DNA of 64,000 bases from an uncultured Chloroflexia bacterium (GTDB taxonomy: Bacteria; Chloroflexota; Chloroflexia; Thermomicrobiales; UBA6265): positions 1,037,562-1,101,561 of the forward strand of contig CAVXMV010000005.1 in the NCBI GenBank assembly GCA_963763125.1, given 5' to 3'. The position numbers and the translations under genes were made by a program. Under the pieces are notes generated by a model. That model made no database searches and was not told the origin of the DNA. It was given only the letters and a program-made list of their open reading frames with translations. Each line of letters opens with the position of its first letter. Positions within the stretch are counted from its first letter, which is position 1. Shown here piece after piece: positions 19,643-61,146 of this stretch.

Positions 19643-20010
19643 ACGGCGGCTTGGACTGGAGGTCGCACGTCGGCCTCTGGATTTACAAGCCTCGATTATG
19701 AGGTGGGAAGCGATGGCTGAGTGGCAAGCGGAATGGCCCCGCACTTCTGCGAAGGCGAATGCTGCCGGCAGGGCGTGATAGAGTGGTGACGAGGCTCGTC
19801 ACTGCATGAGCAAACTCGAGGGCACGTGCCCTCCACGGGGCCTGGAATTCAGCTTGAGCGAATCGACGCAGGCAACGGCTTCCAGATTGCTGCCTTGGAA
19901 GGTGCCTCCTCCATACCGCGCCGTTATCCTCCATCCACGACGCGGCACTGCGGCCATGTCCCTTAAGGTGTGATCTCCCGTTTCTCGTGCGCGACCGAGG
20001 AAAGCATCGG

Positions 20011-33207: not shown

Positions 33208-33816
33208 CTAGTTGATGCGGTGCGCCCGGGTGATGATCACGTGCGGATCGAGCGACTGTCCGTTCGACGGCTGGGTTTGGATCGTGCGCACCACATCCAT
33301 CCCGTCGATCACCTGACCGAACGCCGCAAACCCCTGGCCATCGGGGTTCCGCTGGCCACCGAAATCGAGCTGCTGCTGATCGTTGATGCAGATGAAGAAG
33401 TCCGATACGGCGCTGTCTGGCGTGAGGCGGGCCATGGAAATCGTGCCGTCGAGATGACGCAATCCCGTGTCGCTCGTGCGTTCCAGCGCGAGTGCCGGCC
33501 GCTGCTCGCCGGAGCGGGCCTGGTCGATGCCGCCCTGGATCACTTCGATGGCGATGGTGTCGTTGGGCAGGTTGCTGCGATCTGCACCGGGATCGATGCC
33601 GTCGCCGATCGCCTCTTCCTTGAGGTTGGCGTTCGACTGATTGTCGAGCCGCACCGTACGGTGGAATTTGCCGCCATCGTACAAGCCGCCATCGACATAG
33701 AACAGGAAGTTATCGGTCGTAGCGGGTGCGTGCAGCGCATCGAGGCGCACGACAATGGTGCCGAAGGCTGTTTCCAGCACGATATCCACATGTTCCGCGT
33801 TGTTCTGGTCGGTCAC
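33208..33816 (-). CDS. cyclophilin-type peptidyl-prolyl cis-trans isomerase
   Basis: 'FGTIVVRLDALHAPATTDNFLFY', 'FHRTV' and 'FGQVIDGMDVVRTIQ'. Confidence 0.9.
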   Translation of the reverse strand: MTDQNNAEHVDIVLETAFGTIVVRLDALHAPATTDNFLFYVDGGLYDGGKFHRTVRLDNQSNANLKEEAIGDGIDPGADRSNLPNDTIAIEVIQGGIDQARSGEQRPALALERTSDTGLRHLDGTISMARLTPDSAVSDFFICINDQQQLDFGGQRNPDGQGFAAFGQVIDGMDVVRTIQTQPSNGQSLDPHVIITRAHRIN

Positions 33817-34622: not shown

Positions 34623-37277
34623 TTGGCTGCTGAGCCGCATGGTATCGTTCAGGCGTTGGGATCGGGGCGTGCGGAAGCGGGGGTAGCAGCAGTGGCACGA
34701 GCGGAGCCGTCAGCGTTCGGGGTGTGGTTGCGAAACCATCGGGAGATGGCCGGGCTCACCCAGGAAGAACTTGCTGCCCGCGCCGGATTGACCGCAAACA
34801 CCATCGCCGCGCTCGAGCGTGGTCGGCGGCGACGCCCCTATCCGCATACGGTGCGGGCGCTCGCCGCGGCACTGGGGCTCGACGAAGACGAGTGGGCTGG
34901 CCTGCCGGCCATGGTTGCCGATGCCGCCGCCATGGCCCCTATCGCGGCCTCTGGCCCGGCGCCGGTCATTGGCACCTCGCCAACCCCGCTCATCGGCCGT
35001 GACCAGGCGCTCTCCGACATCCTGGAATCGCTCCAAAATCAGCACGCCAGGCTCGTCACCCTCACCGGGCCAGGTGGGGTCGGCAAGACATCGCTGGCCC
35101 TGGAGGTAGCGCGAAACGCCGCGGATGCGTTCCCCGACGGTGTGGTCGTCGTTCCACTTGACACGCTGGACGATCCCGCGCTAGCCATCTCGTGGATCAC
35201 CGCCAGGGTGGGTCTGGGCGGCCTCGCCAGGAATGACGAGATGGCGGCGCTTCACAGGTATTTTCAGGACCAGCGCATCCTCCTCATCCTGGATAACGTC
35301 GAGCACCTGCTCCCTGCCGCCCAGGACATCGCCGCACTCGTGGCCGCAAATCCTGGGCTGAAGGTGCTGGTCACGAGCCGTGCGCCACTGCGTGTGCGAG
35401 GCGAGCTGGAGTATCCGGTCGGCCCGCTGCCGGTGCCTGACCTCGGCCACATCCCGACACCCGACGAAATCCTCACCTCAGAGGCGGTCCAGCTCTTCAT
35501 AGAACGGGCCCGGGCGATTACCCCATCGTTCGAGGTCACCCAGGCCAACGCCACCGCCATCGCGGCGATCTGCCGGCGCCTGGACGGATTGCCGCTGGCC
35601 CTCGAACTGGCGGCAGCCCGGCTCCGGATCCTCACCCCAACCGAGGTGCTGGCCCGTCTCGACCAGTCCCTTCCCCTGTTGACGGGCGGCGCGCGCGACT
35701 TGCCGGAACGGCAGCGCACGATTCGCCAGGCGATCGCCTGGAGCTACCGTATCCTCGGTCCCGGGGAGCAGGCACTTTTCCGGCGACTGTCGGTCTTCCT
35801 GGGAAGCTGGGACGCAGCCGCGGCCGAAGCGATCGGGACCGCGGCTGCGCCGGTCGCAACCTCTACCCTGGACGTGTTGTCCGCGCTGGTCGAGCACTCG
35901 CTCGTCGTCGCCGATTCCACCGGCGGCATCATGCGCTACCGCATGCTGGAGACGATCCGCGCCTTCGGACGAGAACAACTGGAGGCGAGCGGCGAACTCG
36001 ACGACGTGGCGCGGGTCCATGCCCATTGGTACCTGAAGCTGGCCGAACAGGCGGCGGCGCACTACTACGGTCCGGATGAAGACGAGTGGCTCGATCGCCT
36101 GGAGCGCGACCACCCGAATCTGCGGGCAGCGGTGATCTACGCGCTCCAGGTTGACGACCAGCCCCTGCTGCTCCAGCTCGTCGCGCGGCTGGGCCGGTTA
36201 TGGCTCATGCGCGAGTATTTCCGTGAAGAGGAGTCCCTGGTGGACCGCTCCCTTCGCATCGTGCGCCAGTCCGCGCCCTCCCCGGACGGGGCAACCGTGC
36301 TCTTCGACGTCGGGCGACTGGCCTGGAACCGGGGGGACAGGGCCGCCGGCATCGCGCTACTCCGCGAGAGCCTCGGCATGTGGCGAACGCTCGGCGACGA
36401 CCGTGGCGCCTGCCGCGCGGCGGTCATCCTCGCCAACATGCTGCGGCTCGATGGCGATACGGCCGCGGCCCAGACCCTGCTCCGCGAGGCCCTGGCGGCG
36501 CTGGACCGGCTGGGCGGCGAACCGTACTGGCGTTCCATGGCATTGCGATTGCTCGGCATCATGGCGCTGGAGCAAGCGGATTGGCCGAGGGCGGAGTCGC
36601 TCCTGACCCAGGCACTCGACACCGCCCGGGATGGCAGGATCCGGTGGGCGATGGCGTCGGCGCTGCACAACCTGGCCCATTTGGTCTTCCTCCGCGGTGA
36701 TCACCCGCGGTCGCTTGCCCTGTTCCGGGAAAGCCTCCTCATCGCCTTTGGGCAGCGGGACCGCTGGGCCGTGGTCGTGACGCTCCCGGCGCTGGCGGAG
36801 GTACTTGCCGCGTCCGGCAGCACCACGGAGGCGATCCGGCTCTTCGCGGCATCCAGCAGCCTCAACGAGGCGGTCGCCGCGCGGTTCATCGCTGCGGTCC
36901 CGGAGGTCGAGAGCCATCAACGGGCGATTGCCGCCGCGCGGGCCACCCTTGGCGACGACGCGTTTGCGGCCGCCTGGGACGCAGGCCGATCGTTGTCCCT
37001 CGAAAGCGCCATCGATGAGGCGGTCAGGGCTGTTGAGCAGCGCCTGCACCCTTCCCCCCTGGCCGCCCCGGCGACGCTGCTTCCCGCGGGTCTCACGTTG
37101 CGGGAGGTCGAAGTCGTCAGGCTCGTGGCGGCCGGGATGACCAACGCTCAGGTTGCCGATCGGCTCTACCTGAGTCGCCGCACTGTCGATGCCCACCTGC
37201 GACGAATCTACGACAAGCTCGACCTGTCCAGCCGAACCCAGATCGTCACCTTCGCCCACGAACACGACCTGCTCTAG
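34623..37277 (+). CDS. STAND (NB-ARC-like) regulator with an N-terminal XRE HTH and a C-terminal LuxR HTH
   Basis: 'LRNHREMAGLTQEELAARAGLTANTIAALERG' is the XRE HTH. The P-loop is 'LTGPGGVGKTSLA'. 'LILDNVEHLL' and TPR-like repeats follow. 'LTLREVEVVRLVAAGMTNAQVADRLYLSRRTVDAHLRRIY' is the LuxR HTH. The start codon is uncertain (TTG at 34623 or a downstream GTG). Confidence 0.85.
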   Translation: MAAEPHGIVQALGSGRAEAGVAAVARAEPSAFGVWLRNHREMAGLTQEELAARAGLTANTIAALERGRRRRPYPHTVRALAAALGLDEDEWAGLPAMVADAAAMAPIAASGPAPVIGTSPTPLIGRDQALSDILESLQNQHARLVTLTGPGGVGKTSLALEVARNAADAFPDGVVVVPLDTLDDPALAISWITARVGLGGLARNDEMAALHRYFQDQRILLILDNVEHLLPAAQDIAALVAANPGLKVLVTSRAPLRVRGELEYPVGPLPVPDLGHIPTPDEILTSEAVQLFIERARAITPSFEVTQANATAIAAICRRLDGLPLALELAAARLRILTPTEVLARLDQSLPLLTGGARDLPERQRTIRQAIAWSYRILGPGEQALFRRLSVFLGSWDAAAAEAIGTAAAPVATSTLDVLSALVEHSLVVADSTGGIMRYRMLETIRAFGREQLEASGELDDVARVHAHWYLKLAEQAAAHYYGPDEDEWLDRLERDHPNLRAAVIYALQVDDQPLLLQLVARLGRLWLMREYFREEESLVDRSLRIVRQSAPSPDGATVLFDVGRLAWNRGDRAAGIALLRESLGMWRTLGDDRGACRAAVILANMLRLDGDTAAAQTLLREALAALDRLGGEPYWRSMALRLLGIMALEQADWPRAESLLTQALDTARDGRIRWAMASALHNLAHLVFLRGDHPRSLALFRESLLIAFGQRDRWAVVVTLPALAEVLAASGSTTEAIRLFAASSSLNEAVAARFIAAVPEVESHQRAIAAARATLGDDAFAAAWDAGRSLSLESAIDEAVRAVEQRLHPSPLAAPATLLPAGLTLREVEVVRLVAAGMTNAQVADRLYLSRRTVDAHLRRIYDKLDLSSRTQIVTFAHEHDLL

Positions 37278-37370: not shown

Positions 37371-37599
37371 GGTTCGGTGCACCTACCGAAGCGGGCAACC
37401 GCCACGAAGGGCAGTATTGCAGCAGTGATCACAACCATCGTGGGACCGGTCGCCAGAAAGGCGCACCGGGATTCACGAAACCAGGGTCCACAGCAATTCG
37501 TCGGGTTCCCTGCTCCGCGCAGGACTGGCGATTGCCCATACAGTCGAGCGTTTGATCGACCCGATTCACGCACCGCCCACACCCGGGCAGGAGATTCAC

Positions 37600-38358
37600 A
37601 TGGCCACCATGCACCACCTGATCGAAGGCAACGGCATCGCCGATACCCTTGGCAAACCCATGCACCGGCGCTCGCTCCTCAAGTCCCTGGCCGGGATCGG
37701 CGCAGCCGCGATTGCGGTGAAGACCATCGGCCCGGCCGCCGCCAACCATACCGAACAGACCTACACGGTCAGTAGCAATGCCAACTTCCGGTCCGGCCCC
37801 GGCGCCAACTACAGCCTCATCGGCGTGGTGACCACGGGCGCCACCTTCCAGATCAACGGCCAGGTCCAGAACGGCTATGCCGGCATCATCTACCAGGGCA
37901 AGACCGGCTGGGTGCTGGCGTCCCTCGTCGTGGAGGCCGGCGGTGGCGGGGGCGGCACCCCGACCATCACCGGCCAGGGCTGGACCACCGCTTCGGTCAA
38001 GCTCCGCTCGGGACCAGGGACGACCTATACCGTGCTGAAGGTCGTCCCTGGTGGCGTCAAGATCGGCACGAGCACGACCGTGAAGAACGGGTTCCGGTTC
38101 GTAACGGACGGTTCGCAAGCAGGTTGGATGTCGGATGCCTACATCAGCGCCATCAACCCTGGTGACCCGGCCGGGGATTACGCCACGACCACCGCGAACG
38201 TGAACTTCCGGACCGAGCCGAGCGCGAATTCGCCGATCATCCAGGTGATCCCGGCGGGCTCGAAGGTGCTGCTGCTGCACGTGAACTCGGGCGATTACAC
38301 CAAAGTAGCCTTCAACGGCAAGCAGGGCTGGGTCCACAGGAATTACATCAAGCTCTAG
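37600..38358 (+). CDS. Tat-signal protein with three bacterial SH3 (SH3b) domains
   Basis: Twin-arginine 'HRRSLLKSLAGIGAAA'. Three repeats of the type 'ANFRSGPG..Y..IG.V..G..F......NG(Y/F)...Y.GKTGW' follow. No catalytic domain is present. Confidence 0.8.
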   Translation: MATMHHLIEGNGIADTLGKPMHRRSLLKSLAGIGAAAIAVKTIGPAAANHTEQTYTVSSNANFRSGPGANYSLIGVVTTGATFQINGQVQNGYAGIIYQGKTGWVLASLVVEAGGGGGGTPTITGQGWTTASVKLRSGPGTTYTVLKVVPGGVKIGTSTTVKNGFRFVTDGSQAGWMSDAYISAINPGDPAGDYATTTANVNFRTEPSANSPIIQVIPAGSKVLLLHVNSGDYTKVAFNGKQGWVHRNYIKL

Positions 38359-38407
38359 GCATCACCGGTTGCGATTTTGTCACCTGCGCACGAAAGGCAC
38401 ACTCCGA

Positions 38408-38977
38408 ATGATCCTGACTGACACACTCGTCAACGGCACCACCATCGCCGAGACCCTTGCCAAACCCATGCACCGGCGCTCGCTCCTCAAATCCCTGGCC
38501 GGCGCCGGGGCGGCGGTTGCCCTCGCGGCCACGGCCATCGGCCCGGCCGCCGCCAACCATACCGAGCAGACCTACACGGTCAGCGCGAACGCCAATTTCC
38601 GCACGGGACCGGGCACCAGCTACGCCAAAATCGGCGTCATCGCGAAAGGCGCCACCTTCAAAATCAACGGCCAGGTCCAGAACGGCTACGCCGGCGTGAT
38701 CTACGGGGGCAAGACCGGCTGGGTGCTGGCATCCCTCGTCGTGGCGGCTGGCAGCCAACCGGCTCCTCCGACTCAGCCGCCCGTGATCATCGGCAGGTCG
38801 GTAACCACCACCGCCAACGTCAACCTCCGCTCCGGGCCGGGCACGACGTACGCGGTACTGAAAGTGGTTCCCGCCGGCTCACAGGTTGGCACCACCACCT
38901 ACATCCAGAATGGCTTCCGCTACGTGGTGTCCAACGGCGTCCTCGGCTGGATCTCCACCGCCTACCTGAGCTCCTAG
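38408..38977 (+). CDS. Tat-signal protein with two SH3b domains (tandem paralogue)
   Basis: The N-terminus is nearly identical to the upstream gene at both DNA and protein level ('LAKPMHRRSLLKSLAG...ANHTEQTYTVS'). Confidence 0.8.
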   Translation: MILTDTLVNGTTIAETLAKPMHRRSLLKSLAGAGAAVALAATAIGPAAANHTEQTYTVSANANFRTGPGTSYAKIGVIAKGATFKINGQVQNGYAGVIYGGKTGWVLASLVVAAGSQPAPPTQPPVIIGRSVTTTANVNLRSGPGTTYAVLKVVPAGSQVGTTTYIQNGFRYVVSNGVLGWISTAYLSS

Positions 38978-39238: not shown

Positions 39239-39416
39239 CCGGCCACCGATGCGGTATGCCAGAAACCGGGCATGTGTTCCAGTCGCCATTGCCATCCAGG
39301 AATCCGGTTTTGGCGCACATCCGAGTCGATGATGCGTTCGCTCAGGCAGGTACAGCACCGGCAATCCGGATTCGGCCAGCGATCACGCAGCGCGGAATAC
39401 AAGGAGTGAGCATTCC

Positions 39417-39764
39417 ATGACTGGTTTCATCGATCCCCTGGAGGCTAATGGCAGCGAGCCGGAACTCGACGCGGCGGCAGACCTGGCGAGTGTGCGCGAC
39501 CTCGTGTTGAAGGCGCATCCGGACGTTGTGCCGGAACTTGTGCGCGGAGCATCGATTACCGAGTTGCTGGCAAGCATCGAACCGGCCCACCTGGCGTATG
39601 AGCACCTCGCGACCAGGATCCAGGATGGCCTCCCCCCGACGGTCGCCTTGCCGGTGGTTCCAGCAGGTGGCACAGGCCCGGTTCCGCTGGACCTCGACCA
39701 GATCCCAACCTCCGAGAAGCTCCGACGCGGAATCGAGAACCGGGCACGGGTAGCGACACCGTAG
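39417..39764 (+). CDS. acidic helical protein, phage head-scaffold-like (tentative)
   Basis: AAGGAG RBS. It sits directly upstream of a capsid-fold gene. 'AHPDVVPELVRGASITELLASIEPAHLAYEHL' resembles scaffold or protease C-terminal segments of HK97-like phages. Confidence 0.5.
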   Translation: MTGFIDPLEANGSEPELDAAADLASVRDLVLKAHPDVVPELVRGASITELLASIEPAHLAYEHLATRIQDGLPPTVALPVVPAGGTGPVPLDLDQIPTSEKLRRGIENRARVATP

Positions 39765-39786
39765 CCCTGCATAGCCCCGCACCTTC

Positions 39787-39807
39787 GGGAACCCACAGGG
39801 GGTTCCC
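39787..39807 (+). repeat. hairpin between the scaffold-like and capsid-like genes (family B-like, CCCCTAC tail)
   Basis: gggaaccc-acagg-gggttccc, followed by ctac. Confidence 0.5.
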
Positions 39808-39896
39808 CTACAAGCTTGGGCCTCTCCCGTTACGAGACCTGGTTGCAAACGAACTGTCCGGATGTCATATCGCTCACAAAAGAGGGGGGATTTTCC

Positions 39897-40784
39897 ATGG
39901 CCCTGACCAAAACCGAAGCCGCCCGCCTATCCAACGACTTGCTGATCCGCGGGGTTATCGAAACCATCGTCAAGGATTCTGCAATCCTCCAGTTCCTGCC
40001 GTTCATGGAGGTCACCGGCACGTCTGTCCGCTACACCCGGGAAGCCACCATGCCGAGCGCCAGCTTCTACAACGCCGGCGGAACCTGGAACGAGGCCGTG
40101 CCGACCTGGACCAATCACACCGCGGAGCTCAAGATCCTCGGTGGCGACGCCGATGTCGACAACTTTCTCCAGGCAACCTACTCGGACACCAACGACATTG
40201 AGGCCGAGATTATCGCCAACCGCGCCAAGTCGATCGCCCACAAGTTCAGCGAAACCTTCATCGTTGGCGATTCAACCGTCGACATCAACGCCTTCGACGG
40301 CATCCGCAAGTTGATCCCCGTCGGCCAGACCAAAAACGTCGGAGTTAACGGCGGCGCCCTCACCCTGCCCCTGCTCGACGAACTCGTCGACATGGTCAAG
40401 CCCGGCAAGCCCGAGCTCCTGCTGATGTCCCGCCGCACCAGGCGCGGACTCAAGCAACTGCGCCGCACGGCCGGCCCGGTGATCGAGACGTCCGTTTCCC
40501 AGTTCGGGGAACAAGTCGAAACCTACGAAGGGATCCCGATCGTCGTCGACGATTTCATGCCCGATAACGAGGCGCTCGGGGCCGGAACCAACCTGAGCTC
40601 GATCTACGCCCTCAAGTTTGGGCTTTCAACGGGATTGATGGGTCTCGAACACGGCGGTATCACGGTCGAAAACGTTGGGGAGCTGGAAACCAAGGACGCC
40701 ACGCGAACCCGCCTCAAATGGTATTGCGGTCTTTCACTGATGAGCGAACTTGGGGTCGCTCGCCTCCAGGGCATCACTGCCTGA
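39897..40784 (+). CDS. HK97-fold major capsid protein-like (295 aa, no delta domain)
   Basis: 'LTLPLLDELVDMVKPGKPELLLMSRRTRRGLKQL', 'YEGIPIVVDDFMP' and C-terminal 'TRTRLKWYCGLSLMSELGVARLQGI' follow the layout of phage HK97-family capsid proteins. RBS agagggggg. Confidence 0.75.
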   Translation: MALTKTEAARLSNDLLIRGVIETIVKDSAILQFLPFMEVTGTSVRYTREATMPSASFYNAGGTWNEAVPTWTNHTAELKILGGDADVDNFLQATYSDTNDIEAEIIANRAKSIAHKFSETFIVGDSTVDINAFDGIRKLIPVGQTKNVGVNGGALTLPLLDELVDMVKPGKPELLLMSRRTRRGLKQLRRTAGPVIETSVSQFGEQVETYEGIPIVVDDFMPDNEALGAGTNLSSIYALKFGLSTGLMGLEHGGITVENVGELETKDATRTRLKWYCGLSLMSELGVARLQGITA

Positions 40785-40841
40785 CACCGCTCAACTCGGC
40801 AGCGATCACGGCCGGTCAGAACAGGGCTGACATCGACACAT

Positions 40842-40870
40842 TGGCCGCCACAAGGGCAGCCACTACCTGG
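40842..40870 (+). repeat. REP-like element, family A (variant)
   Basis: tggccgccacaagggcagccactacctgg, between the capsid stop and the terminator. Confidence 0.65.
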
Positions 40871-40907
40871 GTGAAGGCGAGCCATGGCCCGCCCACATCT
40901 CACATCC

Positions 40908-40942
40908 GCAAAACACCATGCCTGTTCGGCATGGTGTTTTGC
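40908..40942 (+). terminator. strong rho-independent terminator ending the capsid bicistron
   Basis: gcaaaacaccatgcc-tgttc-ggcatggtgttttgc gives a perfect 15-bp stem with a TTTT run in the 3' arm. Confidence 0.8.
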
Positions 40943-41881: not shown

Positions 41882-43018
41882 ATGAGCGACGCCATTTTGG
41901 AACATGAACGCTTCGCCGGGATCAAGGGCAAGGACCCACAGCTGGAGGTGCTTGCCGCAGCACCGCTCGTGCTGTCAACTCCGGTCAGTTTGCTCGGCGA
42001 ACAGCGGATAACGGACAAGAAGGTGTTGTACGTTCGCAACATTCAGGACCTGCCCGAGGGCATGACCATGGAGCCCTTGCCAATAGCTGGCTGGGAGATC
42101 GAGCTGGCCGGACTGATCGAACCTTCGCGAGTCGTCATTCGCGCTGAAGATTTGCTCGAGATGGACCAGGTCGAGTACGAGATGGTCCTCCAGTGTTCAG
42201 GCAACGGCCGGACTCAATACGCGGACACCAAGGGAACACGCTGGGGACAGGGCGGAGTGGCGAATGTTCGTTTCGCCGGCGTTCCGCTGTCGGCGGTACT
42301 CCGGAAGTACAACGTCATGGTCGATCCCGAAGTCAAGTACGTGACTGCCGAGGGCCACGACCTGCCTGTGGGAGCAGAGAAGCCGAAGCTTGAGCACAGT
42401 ATGCCGGTGGCAGACGTCCTGGAGACAAGCATCATTGCCCTGACGCTCAACGGGGAGGACCTGCCTGGTATCCACGGCGGGCCGGTGCGTCTGGTAACGC
42501 CGGGATTCTTCGGCACCATGCAGATCAAATGGCTCACGCGGTTGCGGTTCGAAACGGCCGAATCTCCCAGTTACTACCATGCGGAGGAGTATCGTGTGCC
42601 GCTCTCTCCCATTAAGCCGGGAGAAACGTTCACATTCACGATGGAGAACAGCAGACCAACCTGGTTCCTTCGGCTGATGAGTTACATCCTCGACCCGCTG
42701 CCCGGTGCGACGTTGAACGCGGGCGCTGTTACCGTCAGTGGCATCGCCTTCAACGATGGCGCGGCCCGGCTGGAGTCGGTGCTGGTGTCGTTTGACCGCG
42801 GCCACAGTTGGCAGTCGGCGGAGTTCAAGGCGTCCGACAGCCCGTATGCCTGGTATCCGTGGACGATCCAGAAGGATCTCCAGCCTGGTGTCCATGAGAT
42901 TTGGGCTCGCGCAATTGACGCGCTTGGCCGCAGCCAGCCGCTCGATGGCGCAATCTTCTGGAATCCGAACGGCTACGAGTGGACGGGTGTGTTCAAGCTG
43001 GAGGTGACGGTGAGCTAA
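41882..43018 (+). CDS. sulfite-oxidase-family molybdopterin oxidoreductase (catalytic plus dimerisation domains)
   Basis: Mo-ligand Cys context 'LQCSGNGR', 'HGGPVRLVTPGFFGTMQIKWL' and a C-terminal Ig-like Moco-dimer region. No signal peptide. Confidence 0.85.
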   Translation: MSDAILEHERFAGIKGKDPQLEVLAAAPLVLSTPVSLLGEQRITDKKVLYVRNIQDLPEGMTMEPLPIAGWEIELAGLIEPSRVVIRAEDLLEMDQVEYEMVLQCSGNGRTQYADTKGTRWGQGGVANVRFAGVPLSAVLRKYNVMVDPEVKYVTAEGHDLPVGAEKPKLEHSMPVADVLETSIIALTLNGEDLPGIHGGPVRLVTPGFFGTMQIKWLTRLRFETAESPSYYHAEEYRVPLSPIKPGETFTFTMENSRPTWFLRLMSYILDPLPGATLNAGAVTVSGIAFNDGAARLESVLVSFDRGHSWQSAEFKASDSPYAWYPWTIQKDLQPGVHEIWARAIDALGRSQPLDGAIFWNPNGYEWTGVFKLEVTVS

Positions 43019-43215: not shown

Positions 43216-43252
43216 CAACAGGCCTGACCGACTGATCGGTCAGGCCTGTTGG
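43216..43252. terminator. long hairpin between convergent genes (candidate terminator)
   Basis: caacaggcctgaccga-ctga-tcggtcaggcctgttg, a 16-bp stem. Confidence 0.6.
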
Positions 43253-43282: not shown

Positions 43283-44041
43283 CTAGCTGACCGGGGTGGC
43301 CACCGGGGTAGCCTCTGGGGTCGCCTCCGACGCGGCGATCGTATCGGTTTGCAGGACCTTGACCTCGACCGGCTTGTCACTCGACGTCGGATCGCCGATG
43401 ATGACCAGCTCGTACGACTTGCCGGCCTCGACCGTGAAGCCCGTGACCGCGGCGACCGAATCGCCGGTTTCCGCGAGCTGGATGTCAAGATCGTAGCTCC
43501 CGGCCGGAATGTCCATCGCTTCCGAAGTCTTGGGGTAGGCGATGGAAACGGGCGTATCCATCCCGCTAATGACCACGTTGACAGCCGGCGTGCTGACCGA
43601 GGCCTGGGTAAACTGGACCCGGCCCGTGTCAGCGGGCAGTGCAGCCGTGTCGAATGCGCCGGCCAGGATCAGGGCGTCGCTGATCACCAAATAGAAGTCG
43701 TTGCCTGCGGGAGCCGGATAGACGGCATCGAAGAGAATATAATTGAAGCCGGTACGCTCGGCCGTGATGGTGACCTGGACCGCCCCCGCCTCAATGTCGA
43801 CCCAGTCACTCACGTCGCCATAGCCGAACTCCTCGAGCTCACCTTGGCCGTTGATATGGACCTCGACCTCCCCGATATCTGTTGCTCCGTGCAGGAACTG
43901 CACGCGCGTCGCCAGTGCGTCGCTATCCTGGGCCGATGCGCCCGTGGCCGCGACCGGCGCGAAAATGGCTAACAGCAGCAACGCGAGCGCCGCCACAAGA
44001 TGAAATGGTCCGCCGTCAAACCGAGGTTTCCGATGAATCAT
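43283..44041 (-). CDS. secreted DUF4397-domain protein
   Basis: Signal/TM 'LVAALALLLLAIFAPVAA'. 'RVQFLHGATDIGEVEVHING' and 'RVQFTQASVSTPAVNVVISG' are duplicated DUF4397 beta repeats. GGAAGGAG RBS at the ATG at 44041. Confidence 0.8.
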   Translation of the reverse strand: MIHRKPRFDGGPFHLVAALALLLLAIFAPVAATGASAQDSDALATRVQFLHGATDIGEVEVHINGQGELEEFGYGDVSDWVDIEAGAVQVTITAERTGFNYILFDAVYPAPAGNDFYLVISDALILAGAFDTAALPADTGRVQFTQASVSTPAVNVVISGMDTPVSIAYPKTSEAMDIPAGSYDLDIQLAETGDSVAAVTGFTVEAGKSYELVIIGDPTSSDKPVEVKVLQTDTIAASEATPEATPVATPVS

Positions 44042-44616
44042 GGCCTCATGCTCCTTCCCTAACGACAAGAGACGCAACGTGGTTTGGATACTGGGCAAGT
44101 GGGTTATGTGGGCTTGCCTACCTGTCATCGTAACAATTTTTGTTGGGGGAATGCAAGGCACAACAGGGATTGTGTCGTAGCCGAAAAGGTGAACACGCCA
44201 TAGGATCATTTTCCGGAGACGCTACCCCTTCCAGCGGATAGACCGATCGCCGGTACGCCGCCATCGAACGGAAGCGCGTTGTTTGGGGGTGAAATTCGAA
44301 TAGAGTGGCAGTATTTGATGGGCACTTCTCGCTTCTCGCTGTGCCTTCCCCAGCCTCCGTGCCTAACGGATATCCGGAAGGTGCATGTAGAATGGTGCTT
44401 TTTGGGTCGTGATTCAGCATAATGACATGACGAGAAACCAGATACCTATTCAAGATCTGGTCTTTCATCAGGCTGGTCCGTCCAGAATCTATTGCAGCTT
44501 CGGGCGCGGCTGAAGGGGGGGCAGTCCCGTAGCGATCCGAATGGAATCCATGACAAACTGAATCATTTTGGCGAGGCGCGTTGGCCTCGGTTGCGAGATC
44601 CGGAGGTGAATTGTCC

Positions 44617-47582: not shown

Positions 47583-49544
47583 TCAGTCCGCCCCAGCGGT
47601 TGACGGTGACGGCATCTCGACCACGGGAGCGTCGGACGTCGCCGGTTCCAGGGCGCTCCCGTGTTTCTGGAGTTCGCGGTAGAGGATGGTGAATCCCAGA
47701 ATCGAGAAGGGCAGGAACGCGGCGTACACGAGGCTGCTGATCGCGTTGGTGAACTCGACGGTTGATGAGCGGAAGATCAGGAAGAACAGCCCAACCAGTG
47801 GGCCCGGCGCGGCGCCAATGATCAGGAGCAACAACCCGATCCCGGCGACCCGCAGCCACTGGCGAACTCCGACCACTGCGTCGGCGCTGCGTCGCAGCGC
47901 GGCGCGATTGCGGCGATCGTCGAGCATCACCGCCTGCGGAATGAAGTACCATCGCACCCCAAGCCAGATCGCCACCGGAATCCCGATCACGACCAGGCAG
48001 AGCGGCACGAGCACCACCAGCATCAGGAGCACGGCTCGTGCGGTATTTGGCAATTGCCGGAAGGCCTCCTTGTAGACGCCGCCTATCGAGGCCGGCTTGT
48101 GGCGCTCGAATTTCCGGAAGGCTTCGATGATGGCCGGACCCGCGACGATGAGGCCCACGAGGTGCTGGAGCGTGCCGGCGAGAATCGCGGCGGCCAGGCT
48201 GCCCGAGTCGCTGCCTTCGTCCATCATCTGAAAGAGCTGTTCGCCCGGCGGGAACGAGCGGATCAGGTATTGGAAGCCATTGAAGATCAAGCCGACCGGA
48301 ATCAGGACCAGCCCGATCACGGCAAATGTCCGCCAGTGACGTCGATACATCGCCCAGGCTTCGCCGATCGTTTGGCGCGCGAGGGCGTAGAGGGCCATGA
48401 TCGCGGCGACCAGGCCCGCCACGAAGGCGATCACCGCCGCCGGGTTGTTGCCGAGTTCGGTGAAGAGGTTGGAGCCGAAGGTGGACAGTGTACAGAACAC
48501 TTCGGTCGGGCCTGGCCCAAGGGTTGACGAGGTGGGCACCTCCGTGCTGCTGTCGCGGAGACCTTCCTGCCAGGTAAACGGCGAGAGCCACTGCGTTTTC
48601 AGGCGGGGACCGGTCGGGCCGTTGTAATGACCGTGCTCCCGCTCCCCCCAACGGCCCTCGAAGGTCAGCCAGTCGAACTCACTGCCCTGTTCGGGAACCT
48701 GGTCGGGCAGGAGCACGGCGGTGAGGGGGACATCGGTGGTTGGGCTGGTGGTCGTATCGCAGCCGAAACCGGTGCCATTTTCACCCCACCCCAGATAGAC
48801 AGCGTTGCCATACTGGCTGGCATGACTGCCGGCGGCGGCATAGAAAACGACGTGGTCGCCATCCTTCCGGACCTTGCCGTCATCCCAGGCAGCGGTTTCC
48901 CCACCTCCATGCTGGGCGAGCGCGATTTCAACCGGATCGGTTTGCAGGGCTTCTTCCACCGTTGGCACATCCCACACCAACTGCATCATTTCCCAGTCGC
49001 TCTCGTGCTTGTTGTTGAAATCGTTGTAGACGTAAAAGAACCAGTACTGGACGGCCAGCTGGTTCAGGCCATTGCTCTTGATGTGTGCGTAGGTTGTTGG
49101 TACATGCCCAGGCATCCGGGCATCGAACCACTGCTCGTAGCCGCAGCCCGGATCTCGCGGATTGCCGGGAAAGTCGAGGTAATACTCGTCACCGAGCCCG
49201 GAGAGGTCGGCGGCGGTCGGTCCCTGCACGATCACCGGATCGGTGCTCGACGAGCCCCCTTCCTCATTCTGCTTGAGCGCGACATCCGGATCGTTGAACC
49301 AGACGTCGATCGGCGCGGGCACAAACGGCTCGCCATCTTCATCGCATGGCGCCGTCTGGGTTTTCAGTCCGGCGATCGGCGCGTACCGGTCGATCAGTTG
49401 CTGCTCAGCCGATATCGTGGCGCTATCCTGGGCGGTTGCCGAGCCTGGAGTGGCGAGCGGCATCATCGCGATAAGCGTTACGAACAGCAGCACAACGAGA
49501 ATCGTTGGACCCGGCGCCCAAAGGCGATGCCTGCTCATTTGCAA
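47583..49544 (-). CDS. fusion of a secreted Vps62/DUF946-like domain and a polytopic membrane domain
   Basis: Signal peptide. 'LAVQYWFFYVYNDFNNKHESDWEMMQL' matches the Vps62 (PF06101-like) core. The C-terminal 300 aa contain six or more TM helices. Confidence 0.7.
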   Translation of the reverse strand: MQMSRHRLWAPGPTILVVLLFVTLIAMMPLATPGSATAQDSATISAEQQLIDRYAPIAGLKTQTAPCDEDGEPFVPAPIDVWFNDPDVALKQNEEGGSSSTDPVIVQGPTAADLSGLGDEYYLDFPGNPRDPGCGYEQWFDARMPGHVPTTYAHIKSNGLNQLAVQYWFFYVYNDFNNKHESDWEMMQLVWDVPTVEEALQTDPVEIALAQHGGGETAAWDDGKVRKDGDHVVFYAAAGSHASQYGNAVYLGWGENGTGFGCDTTTSPTTDVPLTAVLLPDQVPEQGSEFDWLTFEGRWGEREHGHYNGPTGPRLKTQWLSPFTWQEGLRDSSTEVPTSSTLGPGPTEVFCTLSTFGSNLFTELGNNPAAVIAFVAGLVAAIMALYALARQTIGEAWAMYRRHWRTFAVIGLVLIPVGLIFNGFQYLIRSFPPGEQLFQMMDEGSDSGSLAAAILAGTLQHLVGLIVAGPAIIEAFRKFERHKPASIGGVYKEAFRQLPNTARAVLLMLVVLVPLCLVVIGIPVAIWLGVRWYFIPQAVMLDDRRNRAALRRSADAVVGVRQWLRVAGIGLLLLIIGAAPGPLVGLFFLIFRSSTVEFTNAISSLVYAAFLPFSILGFTILYRELQKHGSALEPATSDAPVVEMPSPSTAGAD

Positions 49545-52010: not shown

Positions 52011-53626
52011 TCAGGCCGGTTGCGCAGCATCCTCGCCCGTTTCAGCGAGCGGGCGGGAGCGGAATGCCTGGACGACCTCATCCAATGTCTGGAAGATGCC
52101 GGCCTGACCGATCGTATCTTCGGAAGCAGCACGTTCCAGCATCGAGCGTACGGGGCTGCGGACGTTGGCGAGCCACACCGCAATGCCTTTGTGGGTGAAA
52201 TCACGGTGGACACTGGCCAGCACATCGAGGCAGGAAATATCAAGTTCGAAGTTCGCTCCCAGGTCGATCACGATCACCGCCGGTTCCGCATCTTCCTGTG
52301 ACACGAGCTCCTTGAGCGAATCGCGCATCCAGGTCGCGTTAACAAAAATCAGCGGCGCGTCCTGCCGGAAAATGAACAATCCGGGCTCGTGCACGGCGTT
52401 TTCATGCCTGGCAGCGGAGACATATGCGGGCGTCCCGGGAACCTGGACGAGTTGGTCGCCGGGGGGCCGGCTGACATGATCCAGCAGGAGCAGGATCGAG
52501 AGCGCCACCGTGATCAGCAGGCCGGGCAGGATTCCGAGCGCCAGCACGCCCAGCAGCGCCAGGCTGGCCAACACGAAACTGTCCCGGCGCAGTGCGAAGA
52601 TCCATAGACAAGGACGAGGAAGCGATCACCGGACCAGCCGACGCCAGCGGGATTCAAGAACGGATCGCCCGATGGCTGCGTCCAGGCCCGCCCGCATTGA
52701 CGGAATTGATGTGTCCAAAGCCACGCTCGATGTCGCCCTCCTTCCCGACGACACCACCTTCCAGGTCACGAACGACGCCACGGGCTGGCAGCTCCTTCTG
52801 GAGCAGGTTGAGCTGCCCACCATTGCGGGGATCGTGCTCGAAGCGACCGACCGTACCGACGATGGCGACACCCTTGTCCGCGAGGTCGAGGACCGTCACG
52901 ACCATGATCGAGGCAGCGACCATCACCAGCGCCGACGGGATACCGGGCGCCAGCTTCGGCAGGACCAGCAACGCTGCCAGGCTGAGACCGCCAATGGCGA
53001 GGGTCCAGCCGCTGGTTTCATCGAGGTGCGTCACCAGGTGCCAGGCCTGCTTGTAAAACGGGCCATCGATCGAGGAGATACCGAACACCTTGAACAACTG
53101 GCCGACCATGATCGTGAGCCCGAGGCCGACGAGGAAGCCTGTCTGCACCGCTGTCGAAAGGAACTGGGAGAGGAATCCCATCCTGAACTTGCCGAGGAGC
53201 AGAAAGACGATGCCGCAGAGAATCGCCAGGGCCGCCGAAAGTGCGGCGTATTCCCCGGGCTCGTTGGTCACCACCAGTGGGGCGACGAGGGAGGCCGAGG
53301 CTGCGTGACGATTGGGCTGGAGTCCGTGAGGTGCCAAACAGGGCGTAGCCGAGGGGCGCCGCGAACGACGCGAACACACCGGCCTGGGGTGGGAGCCCGG
53401 CGATTTGTGCGTAGGCGATGGCTTGGGGAACGACCAGCGCCCACATCGTGAGCCCGGCGAGGATGTCCGGTTTCAGCCACGAGCGCTTGTAGTGCGGCAG
53501 CCACGACGCGATCGGCAACCAGTGCACGATGCGACCATGATTGAGCAACACCTGGTAGACGCCACTGAAATGTGGGCGGACATGGTGCCGCGCTGGAGGC
53601 ACCCAACATTCTGCGACTGGATACAC
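52011..53626 (-). pseudogene. SulP-family anion transporter, disrupted (frameshift, internal deletion and IS remnant)
   Basis: The N-terminus 'WLPHYKRSWLKPDILAGLTMWALVVPQAIAYAQIAGLPPQAGVF' is in one frame and the middle 'FLSTAVQTGFLVGLGLTIMVGQ' in another. Homology stops abruptly at about 52850. The last TM and the STAS domain resume at about 52610. Confidence 0.8.
52612..52848 (+). mobile_element. IS110-family insertion sequence remnant (5' end plus the first ~59 codons of the transposase)
   Basis: 'IDGIDVSKATLDVALLPDDTTFQVTNDATGWQLLLEQV...IVLEAT' matches the DEDD transposase N-terminus of IS110 elements. It is truncated at the SulP junction. Confidence 0.7.
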
Positions 53627-55314: not shown

Positions 55315-57018
55315 ATGAAAGCGCTCAAGACCCTGGGGTCCCGGTTCTCGGGGTTTCGGCTGCGTCGCCCGAAGCCCACGAAGAGCGATCTCATCTCCGG
55401 GCTGACCAACGGCATCGCCAGCATTCCCGACGGGATGACGTCGGGCGTGCTGGCCGGGATCAATCCGGTCTATGGCCTGTACACGCTCATGATCGGCACG
55501 CCCATTGCGGCGCTGACTGTGTCGACGCAGTTGATGGTGTTCAACACTACCAGTGCAATGATCCTGGTCGCGTCAGATGGTCTGGGTGACTTGCAGGGCG
55601 ACGAGCGCGTGCAGGCGATGATCGGGATTGCGTTGATTGCCGGTGCGTTCCAACTCATGCTCGGGATCCTTGGACTTGGCACACTCACCAAGTTCGTTTC
55701 CAACGCGGTGATGACCGGGTTACTCACCGGGGTCTCGGTGCTGATCATCCTTGGGCAGCTCTGGGATTTCTTCGGGTACAGCGGCTCGGGCGATGGGAAG
55801 TTGGAGAAAACGGCCAACCTGCTCGCCAACTTCAACGAGATCGATATCGCCACCACCCTGATTGCGTTGCTGAGCATTGGCCTGATGATCGGCCTGGGAT
55901 TCACCAGGCTCGGGCAATTCAACCTGCTGATCGCGCTGGCGATCGCCACCGCTGTGGCGTATTTCACGAACAAGGATTCGGTCGCGCTGGTCAGTAGCCT
56001 TGGCGAGATTCCTCGCGGATTGCCTGGTTTCGATGTCCCCAACATCCGGCAGACGCTCACCATGGGCATCACCGGGGTGGCGGTCGGGGTGGTCGGGCTC
56101 CTGCAAGCCGCCGGTGTTGCGCAACGCTATCCGAATCGAGACGGGACCGAACCGGACGATTCCCAGGATTTCATGGCCCAGGGTGTCGCCAATGTAGCCA
56201 GCAGTTTCTTCCAGGGGATGCCGGGTGGCGGGTCGCTCAGCGGCACCGCGCTGGGTGTCAGTGCCGGAGCCCAAACGCGTTGGGCGTCGTTTTCCATTTC
56301 GGTCGTCGTCATCGTGTCCGTGCTCATTTTTGCGGGCTTGCTCGAGCTGATCCCGATGGCGGCGCTGGCCGCTCTCCTGATTTACAGCGCAGCGCTCTCC
56401 ATCAAGTTTCCGCTGATCATCTCCGTGCAGAAGACGAACTGGCGCTCCCGGCTCGCGATGGTCCTGACATTTCTCCTTGCGCTGGTCATGCCCCTGCAAC
56501 AGGCGATCGTGCTCGGGGTCGTGGTCGCTGCCGTCCTCTTCGTCTATCGATCGAGCACCGATATCAGGGTCACACGCCTCCAGCGCGAGGAGCATCACTG
56601 GGTCGAATCCGATCCACCGGACACGGTCCAGAGCGGACAGACGCTGCTGCTCGATGTCTTTGGCAGCCTCTTCTATGCGGGCGCCCGAACCCTGGCGAGC
56701 ATGCTGCCCAAGGTCCAGGGGGCCGAGGATGCGGTGGTGATCTTGCGGATCCGGGGCCAGGGCGATGTGGGGAGTACGCTGCTCAATGTCCTCAACAAAT
56801 ACGCCGGCCAACTGCAGGACGGCGGTGGGATGCTGATGTTGACCGGCGTCGATCCTGCCGTGAAGAAACGCATGGACGAGTCGAAGCAACTCGAAACGAT
56901 TGGCCCGGAGCACGTCTTTGCGGCCACGCATATCCGCCACCAATCGATCGAGGAAGCCGAAGCGGCGGCCGACGAGTGGCGCAAGGCGCATGTGGCTGGC
57001 AGCCCCTCGGGCGGGTGA
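55315..57018 (+). CDS. SulP-family inorganic anion transporter with a STAS domain
   Basis: 'SDLISGLTNGIASIPDGMTSGVLAGINPVYGLYT', a polytopic core, and a C-terminal STAS 'LLLDVFGSLFYAGA...VVILRIRG'. Confidence 0.9.
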   Translation: MKALKTLGSRFSGFRLRRPKPTKSDLISGLTNGIASIPDGMTSGVLAGINPVYGLYTLMIGTPIAALTVSTQLMVFNTTSAMILVASDGLGDLQGDERVQAMIGIALIAGAFQLMLGILGLGTLTKFVSNAVMTGLLTGVSVLIILGQLWDFFGYSGSGDGKLEKTANLLANFNEIDIATTLIALLSIGLMIGLGFTRLGQFNLLIALAIATAVAYFTNKDSVALVSSLGEIPRGLPGFDVPNIRQTLTMGITGVAVGVVGLLQAAGVAQRYPNRDGTEPDDSQDFMAQGVANVASSFFQGMPGGGSLSGTALGVSAGAQTRWASFSISVVVIVSVLIFAGLLELIPMAALAALLIYSAALSIKFPLIISVQKTNWRSRLAMVLTFLLALVMPLQQAIVLGVVVAAVLFVYRSSTDIRVTRLQREEHHWVESDPPDTVQSGQTLLLDVFGSLFYAGARTLASMLPKVQGAEDAVVILRIRGQGDVGSTLLNVLNKYAGQLQDGGGMLMLTGVDPAVKKRMDESKQLETIGPEHVFAATHIRHQSIEEAEAAADEWRKAHVAGSPSGG

Positions 57019-57063
57019 CGATTGGGTGCACGGGAATGTTGTGCGGGAAAGCGGGGAGGACGG

Positions 57064-58831
57064 ATGGCGGCAGCGGCGAGCGAACAAGGCTCATCGATCA
57101 TGGAACGCGTGGCGAGATTTATCCCGATCCTGACCTGGGGGCGGGCATACGACAAGAAGTGGCTCCAGCCGGACCTGCTGGCCGGGGTCACGGTGGCGGC
57201 ATTCTCGGTACCGGAGAACATGGCCTATGCCTCGCTCGCCGGACTCGCGCCGCAGTACGGCATGTATGCCAGCCTTCTGGCGCTGATCGCCTACGCCGTG
57301 TTCGGGACCTCCAGACAGCTTTCGGTCGGGGTTACTTCGGCACTCTCGATCATGGTTGCCGGGACCCTTGGCGGGATGGCTTTCGCCAATCCCGATGACT
57401 ATGCGGCAGCGGCCGGTTTCGTGGCGATCGCCGCCGGTGGGATTGCGCTGCTGGCTGGCATCTTCCGTCTCGGATTCGTGGTCAATTTCATTTCCGAATC
57501 GGTCCTGGTCGGTTTTTCCGCCGGCGCTGCGCTGTTCATTGGATCGAGCCAGATCGCAAAGCTCTTTGGCATTGAAGGGGTGCAGGGGAATTTTTTCGAG
57601 CGGATGTGGAACGTACTCAAGAACCTGGGCGATACCAACTACTGGAATCTCGCGCTCGGCCTGGTCTCGATCGCTGCGCTTCTCTTCTTTGAAATCAAGC
57701 TCCCGCGGTTGCCGGGCGCCCTGATCGTGGTGCTCGCGGCGATTGCCGTGATGTGGCTCTCGAATCTCGAGGACCGGGGCCTGAAGGTGGCGGGGGCCAT
57801 CCCGCGAGGCTTGCCGGGACCGGAGATCCCGACGATTGATGCATCGGATTTGTCGACGCTCCTGGGGCTTGCATTCGGTCTCTTCCTGCTCTCCTACATC
57901 GAGGGGATCGGCGCGGCGCGGACGTTCGCCACGGCCCACAAATACAAGATCGACGCCAACCAGGAGCTGATCGCCAACGGCGCGGCAAACATCTCGGCTG
58001 GCCTGTTCCAGGGCTACAACGTTGGCGGCAGCATGTCGCGCTCCGCCGTCAACGATTCCGGGGGAGCCAAATCGCCAGCGGCGAGCCTGTTTGCGGCGAT
58101 CATCCTCGCGATCGTCCTGCTCTTCCTGACCAAGCCGTTCAGCTACCTGCCGGAGGCGACGCTGGCGGCAGTCGTGCTCGTTGCCGTGAAGAGCCTGGTC
58201 AAGGTGCCGGCGATCCGGCGGTTGTGGGCGGTCAGCAGGCCCGACTTCCTGGCGGCGCTGCTCACATTCCTCGGGGTGCTGACCTTCGGCATGCTCGAAG
58301 GCATCATCATCGGCGTGCTGTTCACGTTCCTCACCCTGCTCAAGCGGGTCTCGATGCCACAAACCTCGCTGCTGGGGCGGAAGCCGAACACATCAGAGTT
58401 CGTGGACGTGACGCGGAATCCCGATGCCGAAGTCGTGCCGGGATACCCTCCTCTTCCGGGCTGACTCGGGCTTGTTCTACGCCAATGCTCCGCTGATCAA
58501 GGACGATCTGCTGCAAGACATCGATGCCCGCGAGACGCCGCCGAAACTGGTCGTGATCGATATGGCGTCGGCGCCGCTGGTTGATCTTGGAGCGGTCGAT
58601 ACGCTGGGCGAGATCCAGGAAGAACTGGACGATCGGGGGATATCCCTGCGGTTGGCGGGCGTCTACGGCGAGGTGCGCGATTTCCTTACGAAGGCGGGGT
58701 ATGCAGACCAGTTTGAACCTATCGTACCGGACGAGCCCATCGGCGAAGTACTCAGAAGCTGGCAAGAGGCGTCTCCGGAGCCTCCCAGCACCAATCGGAC
58801 CGCTGCCACGACTCCGTCGAAGGCCGGGTGA
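57064..58831 (+). pseudogene. SulP-family anion transporter with a +1 frameshift before the STAS domain (near 58444)
   Basis: The core ends '...NPDAEVVPG' in frame 1. The STAS domain 'TLLFRADSGLFYANAPL...VVIDMASAP' continues in frame 2. One extra t at about 58444 is responsible. Confidence 0.8.
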
Positions 58832-60222: not shown

Positions 60223-61146
60223 TTGACCTGGATCTCCGGCGGAACCTTTACGATGGGGTCCGACAGCCACTATCGTGAAGAGAAACCGGCCCATCGCGTT
60301 GCGGTGGACGGGTTCTGGATCGACCCGCACCTGGTCACAAACCAGCAGTTCGCCCGGTTTGCGACCGCCACCGATTACATAACCATTGCCGAGCGGGCAC
60401 CCGATCCCGCCCTCTACCCGGGTGCGCCACCGGAAAACCTCGTGCCTGGTTCGATGGTCTTTGTCCCGACGGCGGGGCCGGTTGACCTGCGCAACAGCGC
60501 CCAATGGTGGCGCTGGGTGCCGGGCGCCGATTGGCGACACCCGACGGGGCCGGGCAGTTCGATCGACGGGCTGGAGCAGCATCCGGTTGTCCAGGTCGCA
60601 TGGGAGGACGTGGAGGCGTATGCCACCTGGGCCGGCAAGGACCTCCCGACCGAAGCGGAATGGGAGTTCGCAGCCCGTGGCGGTCTCGATGGCGCCGTCT
60701 TCACCTGGGGAGACGAAGACACCCAGCACACCGCGCCCATGGCGAACACCTGGCGGGGCCAGTTTCCCTGGGAAAGCACCAAGGCTCCGGGATTTGAGCG
60801 TACCTCGCCAGTTGGCACGTTTCCGGCGAACGGCTACGGCCTGTTCGACATGGCCGGCAATGTCTGGGAATGGACAGCGGACTGGTTCGTGGATCGACGA
60901 GATCGACCCACAACGGCGGCGTGCTGCGTGCCGCACAACCCGCGAGGAGGGATGCTGGAGGAGAGTTTCGACCGCCAGTTCCCGATTCCGCGCAAGGTGG
61001 TGAAGGGTGGTTCGCACCTGTGCGAACGCGACGCCTGTTTTCGCTACCGGCCAGCCGCCCGCCAACCGCAAATGATCGACACCGGCATGAGCCATGTTGG
61101 CTTCCGCTGTATTGTTCGCACGCCGGTACAAACTCCGGAGGGATAA
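60223..61146 (+). CDS. formylglycine-generating enzyme (SUMF1/FGE family)
   Basis: Colinear with M. tuberculosis Rv0712 as remembered: 'GGTFTMGSD', 'HPVVQVAWEDVEAYATWAGKDLPTEAEWEFAARGG', 'GNVWEWT' and 'KGGSHLCERDACFRYRPAAR'. TTG start. Confidence 0.9.
   Translation: MTWISGGTFTMGSDSHYREEKPAHRVAVDGFWIDPHLVTNQQFARFATATDYITIAERAPDPALYPGAPPENLVPGSMVFVPTAGPVDLRNSAQWWRWVPGADWRHPTGPGSSIDGLEQHPVVQVAWEDVEAYATWAGKDLPTEAEWEFAARGGLDGAVFTWGDEDTQHTAPMANTWRGQFPWESTKAPGFERTSPVGTFPANGYGLFDMAGNVWEWTADWFVDRRDRPTTAACCVPHNPRGGMLEESFDRQFPIPRKVVKGGSHLCERDACFRYRPAARQPQMIDTGMSHVGFRCIVRTPVQTPEG

Follow-up and report, generated by a model that had tools for sequence, protein, structure and literature searches.

What is an intact gene for a phage-type capsid protein doing, with one small partner gene, in a row of otherwise cellular genes? 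The question is raised by a 64,000-nucleotide stretch of DNA from an uncultured Chloroflexia bacterium of the Thermomicrobiales (contig CAVXMV010000005.1; the whole of the stretch is termed the window), in which a gene for a 115-residue protein (gene A) is followed by one for a 295-residue protein resembling major capsid proteins (MCPs). The original prediction was of a domesticated capsid, perhaps an encapsulin-like compartment, or else a prophage relic. The evidence now available is that the pair is not a decaying prophage remnant; on balance, it is probably the shell module of a domesticated, phage-derived gene set of the Thermomicrobiales, encoding a particle like that of a gene transfer agent (GTA).

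Gene A (39417-39764, + strand) and the MCP gene (39897-40784, + strand) are intact open reading frames (ORFs), with a spacer of 132 nt between them. The strong ribosome binding sites ascribed to both are confirmed from the sequence, in that a Shine-Dalgarno motif AAGGAG (39401-39406, + strand) lies 10 nt 5' of the ATG of gene A at 39417, and a second, GAGGGGGG (39882-39889, + strand), lies 7 nt 5' of the ATG at 39897, which was taken as the start of the MCP gene (the mechanically called ORF opens at TTG 39816). The overall GC and GC3 of both genes are within 1.1 standard deviations of those of the host genes in the window.

The 295-residue protein is a genuine HK97-type phage MCP. It matches phrog_212 over residues 1-294 (E = 1.2e-73) and, over its full length, passes the cut-offs of curated MCP families, i.e. 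NCBIfam NF045672 'MCP_gp7_epsi_15' (185.2 bits, cut-off 75), TIGR01554 (34.6 bits, cut-off 27.5) and PF05065 (50.5 bits, cut-off 24.2); it is also 38-43% identical, full length, to the MCPs of cultured phages such as nickie, SSU5, Xp15 and Tripp, in which the scaffold is a gene of its own. The alignment available for structure prediction was shallow, and the AlphaFold2 (AF2) model is of low confidence (pLDDT 56, pTM 0.53); despite this, the top 50 Protein Data Bank (PDB) matches returned for it by Foldseek are all HK97-fold shells (probability 0.91-1.0, query-normalized TM 0.27-0.50), including phage capsids, encapsulins, the RcGTA capsid (6tsu) and the capsid of a capsid-forming phage-inducible chromosomal island (cf-PICI; 9gyi). 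A broad sequence profile of the MCP finds phage MCPs in the PDB (8cjz, 2e-7; 3j4u, 1.5e-6) and, weakly, family 2 encapsulins; a narrow profile finds no PDB match and the single sequence weak ones only. The searches with profile hidden Markov models (HMMs) and predicted structures that had been proposed for the pair thus place the protein with the phage MCPs of BPP-1/epsilon15 type, in the HK97 layout without a delta domain that was originally suggested, and no threshold of an encapsulin family is reached.

Gene A is, as first described, acidic (17 D+E vs 9 K+R) and helical; its AF2 model (pLDDT 73.5) has helices at residues 16-33 and 47-71, a Pro/Gly-rich linker, and a basic C-terminal helix at 98-113. 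It has no match in Pfam, PHROG or NCBIfam, nor among GenBank phages, and all 134 of its homologues are annotated as hypothetical; for several of these, a relative of the MCP is encoded on the same contig. The gene lies directly 5' of the MCP gene in 66 of 85 genomic loci, with both ORFs intact there, and in 72 of 80 viral contigs the HMM of its family picks out the gene that lies between those for portal and MCP (E = 1e-40 to 7e-9). Alignment reveals two motifs in common with the viral-contig versions, which carry an N-terminal coiled coil that is lacking in the gene A of the window. The gene 5' of the MCP gene is annotated as a head scaffolding protein in Paenibacillus phage Tripp, and that at the scaffold position in Salmonella phage SSU5 is unannotated. 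By position and sequence similarity, gene A is a minimal homologue of the phage genes found at the scaffold position; its product would bind the coat protein and take part in procapsid assembly. Of the two roles initially proposed for its product, scaffold or cargo, the former is favored by the viral-contig homologues and the latter is disfavored by the lack of an enzyme domain. PADLOC finds no defense-system match for gene A or the MCP.

The pair stands alone in the window. A six-frame search of the 64 kb with profile HMMs of nine families of the element described below matched gene A only, and Pfam assigns cellular families only to essentially all the other ORFs. These include a ParA/Mrp NTPase, hydrolases, a Cys/Met pyridoxal phosphate enzyme, an ABC transporter, an AlkZ-like glycosylase, a cyclophilin, a cupin, an HTH/NB-ARC/TPR/GerE regulator, two SH3b proteins of the Tat (twin-arginine translocation) type, a molybdopterin oxidoreductase, DUF4397, SulP permeases and an FGE-sulfatase. 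There are no tRNA genes or Rfam families in the window, no direct repeats bracketing the pair and no att-like repeats; nor does the 64 kb hold an integrase, an att/tRNA target, or lysogeny, replication or tail genes, such as would mark a prophage. The statement that no other phage genes occur in the 64 kb accordingly holds by both types of scan, and the cellular neighbors are those that had been named, i.e. a STAND (signal transduction ATPase with numerous domains) regulator, the two Tat-SH3b proteins and the molybdopterin oxidoreductase.

The relatives of the pair place it in a larger context. The MCP has 3,290 database relatives, the best 120 of which are 66-87% identical to it, the few with a taxon name being Thermomicrobiales. 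A scan of GTDB with one genome per species gave at least 528 MCP relatives; the best 80 (50-77% identity) are nearly all from metagenome-assembled genomes (MAGs) of Thermomicrobiales, Sphaerobacteraceae or Chloroflexia, with Nitrolancea hollandica Lb also among them. All ORFs of 85 MCP loci, most of them from MAGs, were called mechanically, filtered by codon-position GC and clustered into families, and the recurrent same-strand families were annotated. A compact cluster of ~11 genes in 10-12 kb, without integrase, was observed to be conserved across the Thermomicrobiales. It comprises a packaging module, made up of family c10 (~140 aa, Zn-finger), family c9 (~75 aa, hydrophobic, with a putatively membrane-spanning stretch) and the large terminase TerL (phrog_2); a shell module of scaffold (gene A) and capsid (MCP); and a neck module of portal (SPP1_portal), SU10-type adaptor, Mu-F-like protein and the unannotated family c11 (~600 aa), the last often followed by a small hydrophobic/membrane protein, c20. 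An Amidase_2 endolysin and a GNAT protein usually accompany the cluster. The genes are contiguous in the order c10-c9-TerL-A-MCP-portal-adaptor-MuF-c11 in loci L169-L173 and occur in other orders elsewhere, including in N. hollandica Lb (L038), L050 and L030; such differences in gene order between genomes are unusual for phage head modules.

The setting of these clusters is chromosomal. On a closed 3.6-Mb chromosome (OY970217.1; L050) an 11-kb cluster is flanked by genes for inorganic pyrophosphatase, uracil-DNA glycosylase, an HD-domain protein and GntR, and the complete clusters in general are flanked by housekeeping genes. Among 97 flanking or intervening ORFs of 19 compact loci, the 25 commonest Pfam families are all cellular (including GNAT, SRP54, ATP synthase, carboxyltransferase, fructose bisphosphatase and sigma-70), and no integrase, replication or tail family occurs in two or more of the 97. 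The homologues of the pair do not, then, always sit inside complete prophages, since the complete clusters are without integrase, replication and lysogeny genes. A DUF4352 gene (family c14) was also seen divergently upstream of c10-c9-TerL in at least 12 loci, among them stand-alone packaging modules (the loci include L030, L032, L043, L048, L049, L055, L168 and L175); the gene is possibly a conserved accessory to that module.

Related genes are also found in sequences classed as viral. IMG/VR holds at least 479 MCP relatives called viral, the best of which is 63% identical to the MCP of the window; most are on contigs of lower GC in the canonical order c10-TerL-portal-A-MCP-...-adaptor-c19, and some (L088-L092) carry the same high-GC clusters. 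Families c11 (e.g. L030:15317-17140), in the Thermomicrobiales clusters, and c19 (e.g. L063:12098-14113), in the viral contigs, both follow the adaptor gene. At 600-670 aa they have no match in Pfam, PHROG or GenBank phages, and are not detectably homologous to each other; either might be a component of a nozzle or tail.

A neighbor-joining tree built from the 85 MCPs groups the window with a clade of ~25 loci, which mostly have only gene A beside the MCP gene. In relatives, the missing modules can be located elsewhere. On a 658-kb JGI contig (Ga0500083_000002) A-MCP-amidase lies at ~533 kb and portal-adaptor-MuF-c11-c20 at ~244 kb, the two being 290 kb apart and both among cellular genes. In L002 and L010 some 3 kb separates the MCP gene from the portal module downstream, the genes between them in L002 being GyrI-like, YjbR and Rieske genes, and in L022 the set c10-c9-TerL is 7 kb downstream of A-MCP; c10-c9-TerL stands alone in L175 (a 570-kb contig) and L168. 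A metagenome scan for TerL gave 12 loci, with the contig of L001 not among them. The gene set cannot transfer itself because its genes are spread over several loci, and an inability to self-mobilize, as in GTAs, is thus shown in the relatives. With respect to the proposal that a two-gene module might recur without phage genes, this is largely the case in the clade of the window; in other relatives the pair lies inside TerL-portal-adaptor clusters.

The locus is inherited vertically. Flanking ORF families are common to species-level genomes down to ~76% MCP identity, including a cyclophilin peptidyl-prolyl isomerase gene upstream of the pair (33208-33816, - strand; common to the window, L007, L019, L029 and L003) and a gene for a 653-residue protein (47583-49544, - strand; common to the window, L003 and L019). 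In L029, a locus that the tree places on the margin of the clade beside compact-cluster loci, c10-c9-TerL lies just upstream of the cyclophilin gene and A-MCP, such that the cyclophilin gene is between TerL and gene A.

Purifying selection on the pair is strong. Across 18 syntenic genome pairs, without exception, conservation of the MCP equals or exceeds that of the median cellular gene in the flanks (e.g. 85 vs 58%, 94 vs 60%, 84 vs 55% and 98 vs 82% identity), and the same is mostly true of the portal and TerL. The dN/dS values (NG86) of the MCP are 0.09 for the closest pair and 0.23 as the clade median, those of gene A being 0.24 and 0.45, respectively. At none of the 77 positions invariant among 33 relatives does the MCP of the window depart from the common residue, and it differs, conservatively in each case, at three of the 140 columns that are at least 90% conserved; its gene A keeps all 15 invariant and all 23 columns of at least 90% conservation. 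The MCP values are thus not those of neutral decay, and the description 'domesticated capsid' is a fair one because the pair is kept intact by selection.

GTAs have head, packaging and lysis genes without mobility genes, which are vertically inherited under purifying selection and may lie in dispersed loci. In being chromosomally fixed, vertically inherited and subject to purifying selection, the set considered here resembles the known GTAs (RcGTA of Rhodobacter capsulatus, BaGTA, VSH-1, Dd1 and VTA), with which it also has in common head, packaging and lysis genes, an absence of integrase and replication genes and a division among several loci; the RcGTA capsid is, as noted, among the structural matches. 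By contrast, there is no sequence relationship to those GTAs past the HK97 fold; the present set has a head and adaptor of BPP-1/epsilon15/SU10-like lineage, a Chloroflexota host, ~11 genes in scrambled order and no recognizable tail, and particle production and DNA transfer are predicted for it. We infer a GTA function from this combination of traits. It may be that the set is an undescribed GTA-like system, as it is anciently inherited, strongly conserved and split into separate loci across the Thermomicrobiales.

The proposed course of events would start from an ancestral set that was compact, integrase-less and of ~11 genes, in which packaging (c10, c9 and TerL), shell and neck modules were together. 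In the lineage leading to the genome of the window these three modules would have become unlinked, leaving the shell module alone as a bicistron with its own ribosome binding sites and terminator hairpin. The basic C-terminal helix of gene A would bind the MCP and nucleate a procapsid around a portal encoded elsewhere in the genome; the terminase would then fill the shell with DNA, and lysis would release the particles, as in a GTA.

Several observations weigh against such a reading. There is no recognizable tail beyond the adaptor in these clusters, and neither c11 nor c19 has an annotated homologue. Two MAGs have two different MCP copies each, which may reflect some mobility, the presence of two elements in a genome, or contamination of the MAGs (the copies, in L022/L023 and L024/L076, are 64-67% identical to the MCP of the window). 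None of the best 120 portal homologues, which extend down to ~61% identity, is on the 2.83-Mb contig of the window. The MCP tree is a neighbor-joining one without support values, dS is near saturation for most pairs, and the high identity of the MCP relative to its flanks could in part arise from recombination with related elements. In addition, particle formation, DNA packaging and the retention of the other modules in this genome are matters that we infer only.

It is also conceivable, though unlikely, that the terminase and portal have been lost here and that the pair has been kept as a stand-alone shell, acting as an encapsulin-like compartment or in anti-phage interference. Such a role would suit the weak, sub-threshold resemblance of the MCP to family 2 encapsulins, the isolation of the pair in 64 kb with its own ribosome binding sites and terminator hairpin, the ~20 clade members that have A+MCP only (within sequence of up to +/-10 kb), and the lack of a portal match on the contig, although the best 120 portal homologues reach only to ~61% identity and the absence of a portal is not established by them. 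The clade members that can be checked, however, keep portal or TerL modules intact and conserved. The encapsulins have, like the pair, an HK97-fold shell protein outside a phage, and can be preceded by a small partner that ends in a helix behind a flexible linker; the linker and short terminal helix of gene A do resemble encapsulin targeting peptides. Yet gene A lacks any enzyme domain and is homologous to phage scaffolds, no conserved candidate cargo gene lies beside the pair, and, unlike the encapsulins, relatives of the pair sit with terminase and portal genes. Applying the family criteria of Andreas and Giessen 2021 (PMC8346489), the MCP has no match to the family 1 domain PF04454 (Linocin_M18) at E <= 1. 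Its similarity to family 2 is weak and below threshold (PF19307, 18.0 bits, cut-off 22.8; NF041163, 19.5 bits, cut-off 400), the E value of SrpI in the PDB against the broad MCP profile being 0.015, i.e. weaker than for the phage MCPs. Family 3 shells are, like the MCP, annotated as PF05065, and are encoded inside natural-product biosynthetic gene clusters (PMC8346489); no nonribosomal peptide synthetase/polyketide synthase, sulfotransferase, short-chain dehydrogenase/reductase (SDR) or amino-group carrier protein (AmCP) gene is near the pair in the window. An encapsulin identity is hence ruled out by the unreached thresholds, the lack of a cargo enzyme and the lack of a biosynthetic cluster, and the encapsulin-like element of the original prediction is not supported, with homologous pairs lying inside TerL-portal-adaptor clusters and relatives with isolated pairs keeping portal or terminase genes elsewhere.

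That the clusters are mobile, i.e. small prophages or helper-dependent satellites of the cf-PICI type of which the window retains a leftover fragment, is improbable. The viral calls in IMG/VR, some of them for the same high-GC clusters, and the double copies in two MAGs are in its favor, as are the cf-PICI capsid among the Foldseek matches and the combination of head, packaging and adaptor genes with no obvious tail, as in capsid-forming satellites. cf-PICIs are alike in being chromosomal and in encoding an HK97 capsid, a portal, an adaptor and packaging functions of their own, with no tail. They are mobile elements with an integrase and modules for regulation and replication; by contrast, no such modules recur beside the 19 compact loci, and the loci here are in synteny from one species to another. 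Gene order that is scrambled between genomes, modules up to 290 kb apart, a window without tRNA or att-like repeats, and viral contigs that are at most 63% identical in MCP likewise speak against mobility. The metagenomic contigs L093-L167 and the tailed phages with phrog_212 MCPs, such as Paenibacillus Tripp, Salmonella SSU5 and Pseudomonas nickie, do have an MCP 38-50% identical over its full length and a scaffold gene directly 5' of it, and the contigs have the same TerL, portal and adaptor families; they differ in having whole genomes of canonical order with tails and replication genes, whereas the window has the pair alone among cellular genes and a scaffold without the N-terminal coiled coil. 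Less probable still is that the pair is functionless, a final, undecayed remnant of an old prophage that has yet to acquire a disabling mutation. Its phage origin, its isolation and the lack of demonstrated expression would fit, as would the lack of a sigma-70-like promoter in the sequence upstream of gene A. Against an inert relic are the intact ORFs in 66 of 85 loci of many species, an MCP more conserved than the neighboring cellular genes, dN/dS well below 1 with all invariant residues kept, a host-like composition, and a terminator-like hairpin that recurs after the MCP gene.

This hairpin (40908-40942, + strand; 124 nt 3' of the MCP stop) was first noted as a terminator with a perfect 15-bp inverted repeat. 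The repeat is real, with a 5-nt loop, and the 66-nt stretch holding it has a folding energy of -37.2 kcal/mol (z = -6.4); a simple terminator scan makes no call there because there is no T-run. Hairpins of -27 kcal/mol or stronger occur within 150 nt 3' of the MCP stop in 11 of 25 clade loci, vs 16 of 200 control segments (Fisher p = 1.4e-5), and with such recurrence in the clade the hairpin of the window fits a conserved end of the transcription unit. A second, GC-rich hairpin of 8 bp in the spacer between the genes (39787-39807, + strand; -15.5 kcal/mol, z = -2.4) does exist as described, but the suggestion that it sets the expression ratio of the two genes is doubtful. Hairpins and spacer lengths vary widely in the clade (A-MCP spacing -49 to 290 nt), most relatives being without a comparable spacer hairpin, and it was rejected as a conserved regulator. 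Further downstream, the convergent genes for the molybdopterin oxidoreductase (ending at 43018) and the DUF4397 protein (ending at 43283) have between them another perfect inverted repeat, of 16 bp around a 4-nt loop (43216-43251), which is probably a bidirectional terminator.

The neighborhood of the pair has other features. Directly 5' of it are two tandem paralogous SH3b-repeat genes (37552-38358 and 38369-38977); a Tat signal is assigned to the second by Pfam and the same RR-motif leader is present in the first, and the two hold direct repeats of 228 nt and 85 nt with 82-85% identity. Binding to cell walls is a property of SH3b domains. The window also encodes three large STAND regulators of LuxR/GerE type, at 15915-18650, 19987-22632 and 34623-37277, the last with HTH_3 at its N-terminus as well as NB-ARC and TPR domains. 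LuxR-type STAND homologues lie within 10 kb of the MCP gene in 8 of the 85 loci; the family being very abundant, as its three members in the window illustrate, enrichment near the MCP cannot be claimed, and a functional link to the pair was discarded. Downstream are sulfur-related genes, including those for a sulfite-oxidase-like Mo enzyme (41882-43018), two full SulP sulfate permeases (55315-57018 and 57022-58464), a STAS-domain protein (52011-52574, - strand) and an FGE-sulfatase-family protein (60223-61146). A DUF4397 gene is found near capsid genes both in the window (43283-44209, - strand) and in the compact-cluster locus L030 (2223-3548), and the family is also common to the window and L011 (comp 461); its proximity to capsid genes may be coincidental.

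A broader proposal, to be held more tentatively than the assignment of the pair itself, is that the Thermomicrobiales, including Nitrolancea hollandica, carry an undescribed GTA-like DNA-packaging system of BPP-1/epsilon15/SU10-like origin, with ~11 genes in scrambled order and modules that are scattered in some lineages yet maintained together, the window containing its shell module. A literature search found nothing on GTAs or capsids in Thermomicrobia/Thermomicrobiales, and the matching papers on Chloroflexi and Nitrolancea were unrelated by title and abstract. To our knowledge, GTAs are known from few lineages only, all of them discovered via genetics rather than genomics. If the proposal is correct, an independent domestication of a phage would extend across a whole order of the Chloroflexota, a phylum in which none has been described, and its signature would be unlinked modules that are more conserved than their cellular neighbors and in gene orders scrambled between genomes. 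There would also be consequences for annotation, in that such loci, labeled as 'phage major capsid protein' or as viral in IMG/VR, would inflate prophage counts for soil Chloroflexota. The availability of N. hollandica in culture makes the GTA-like reading directly testable.

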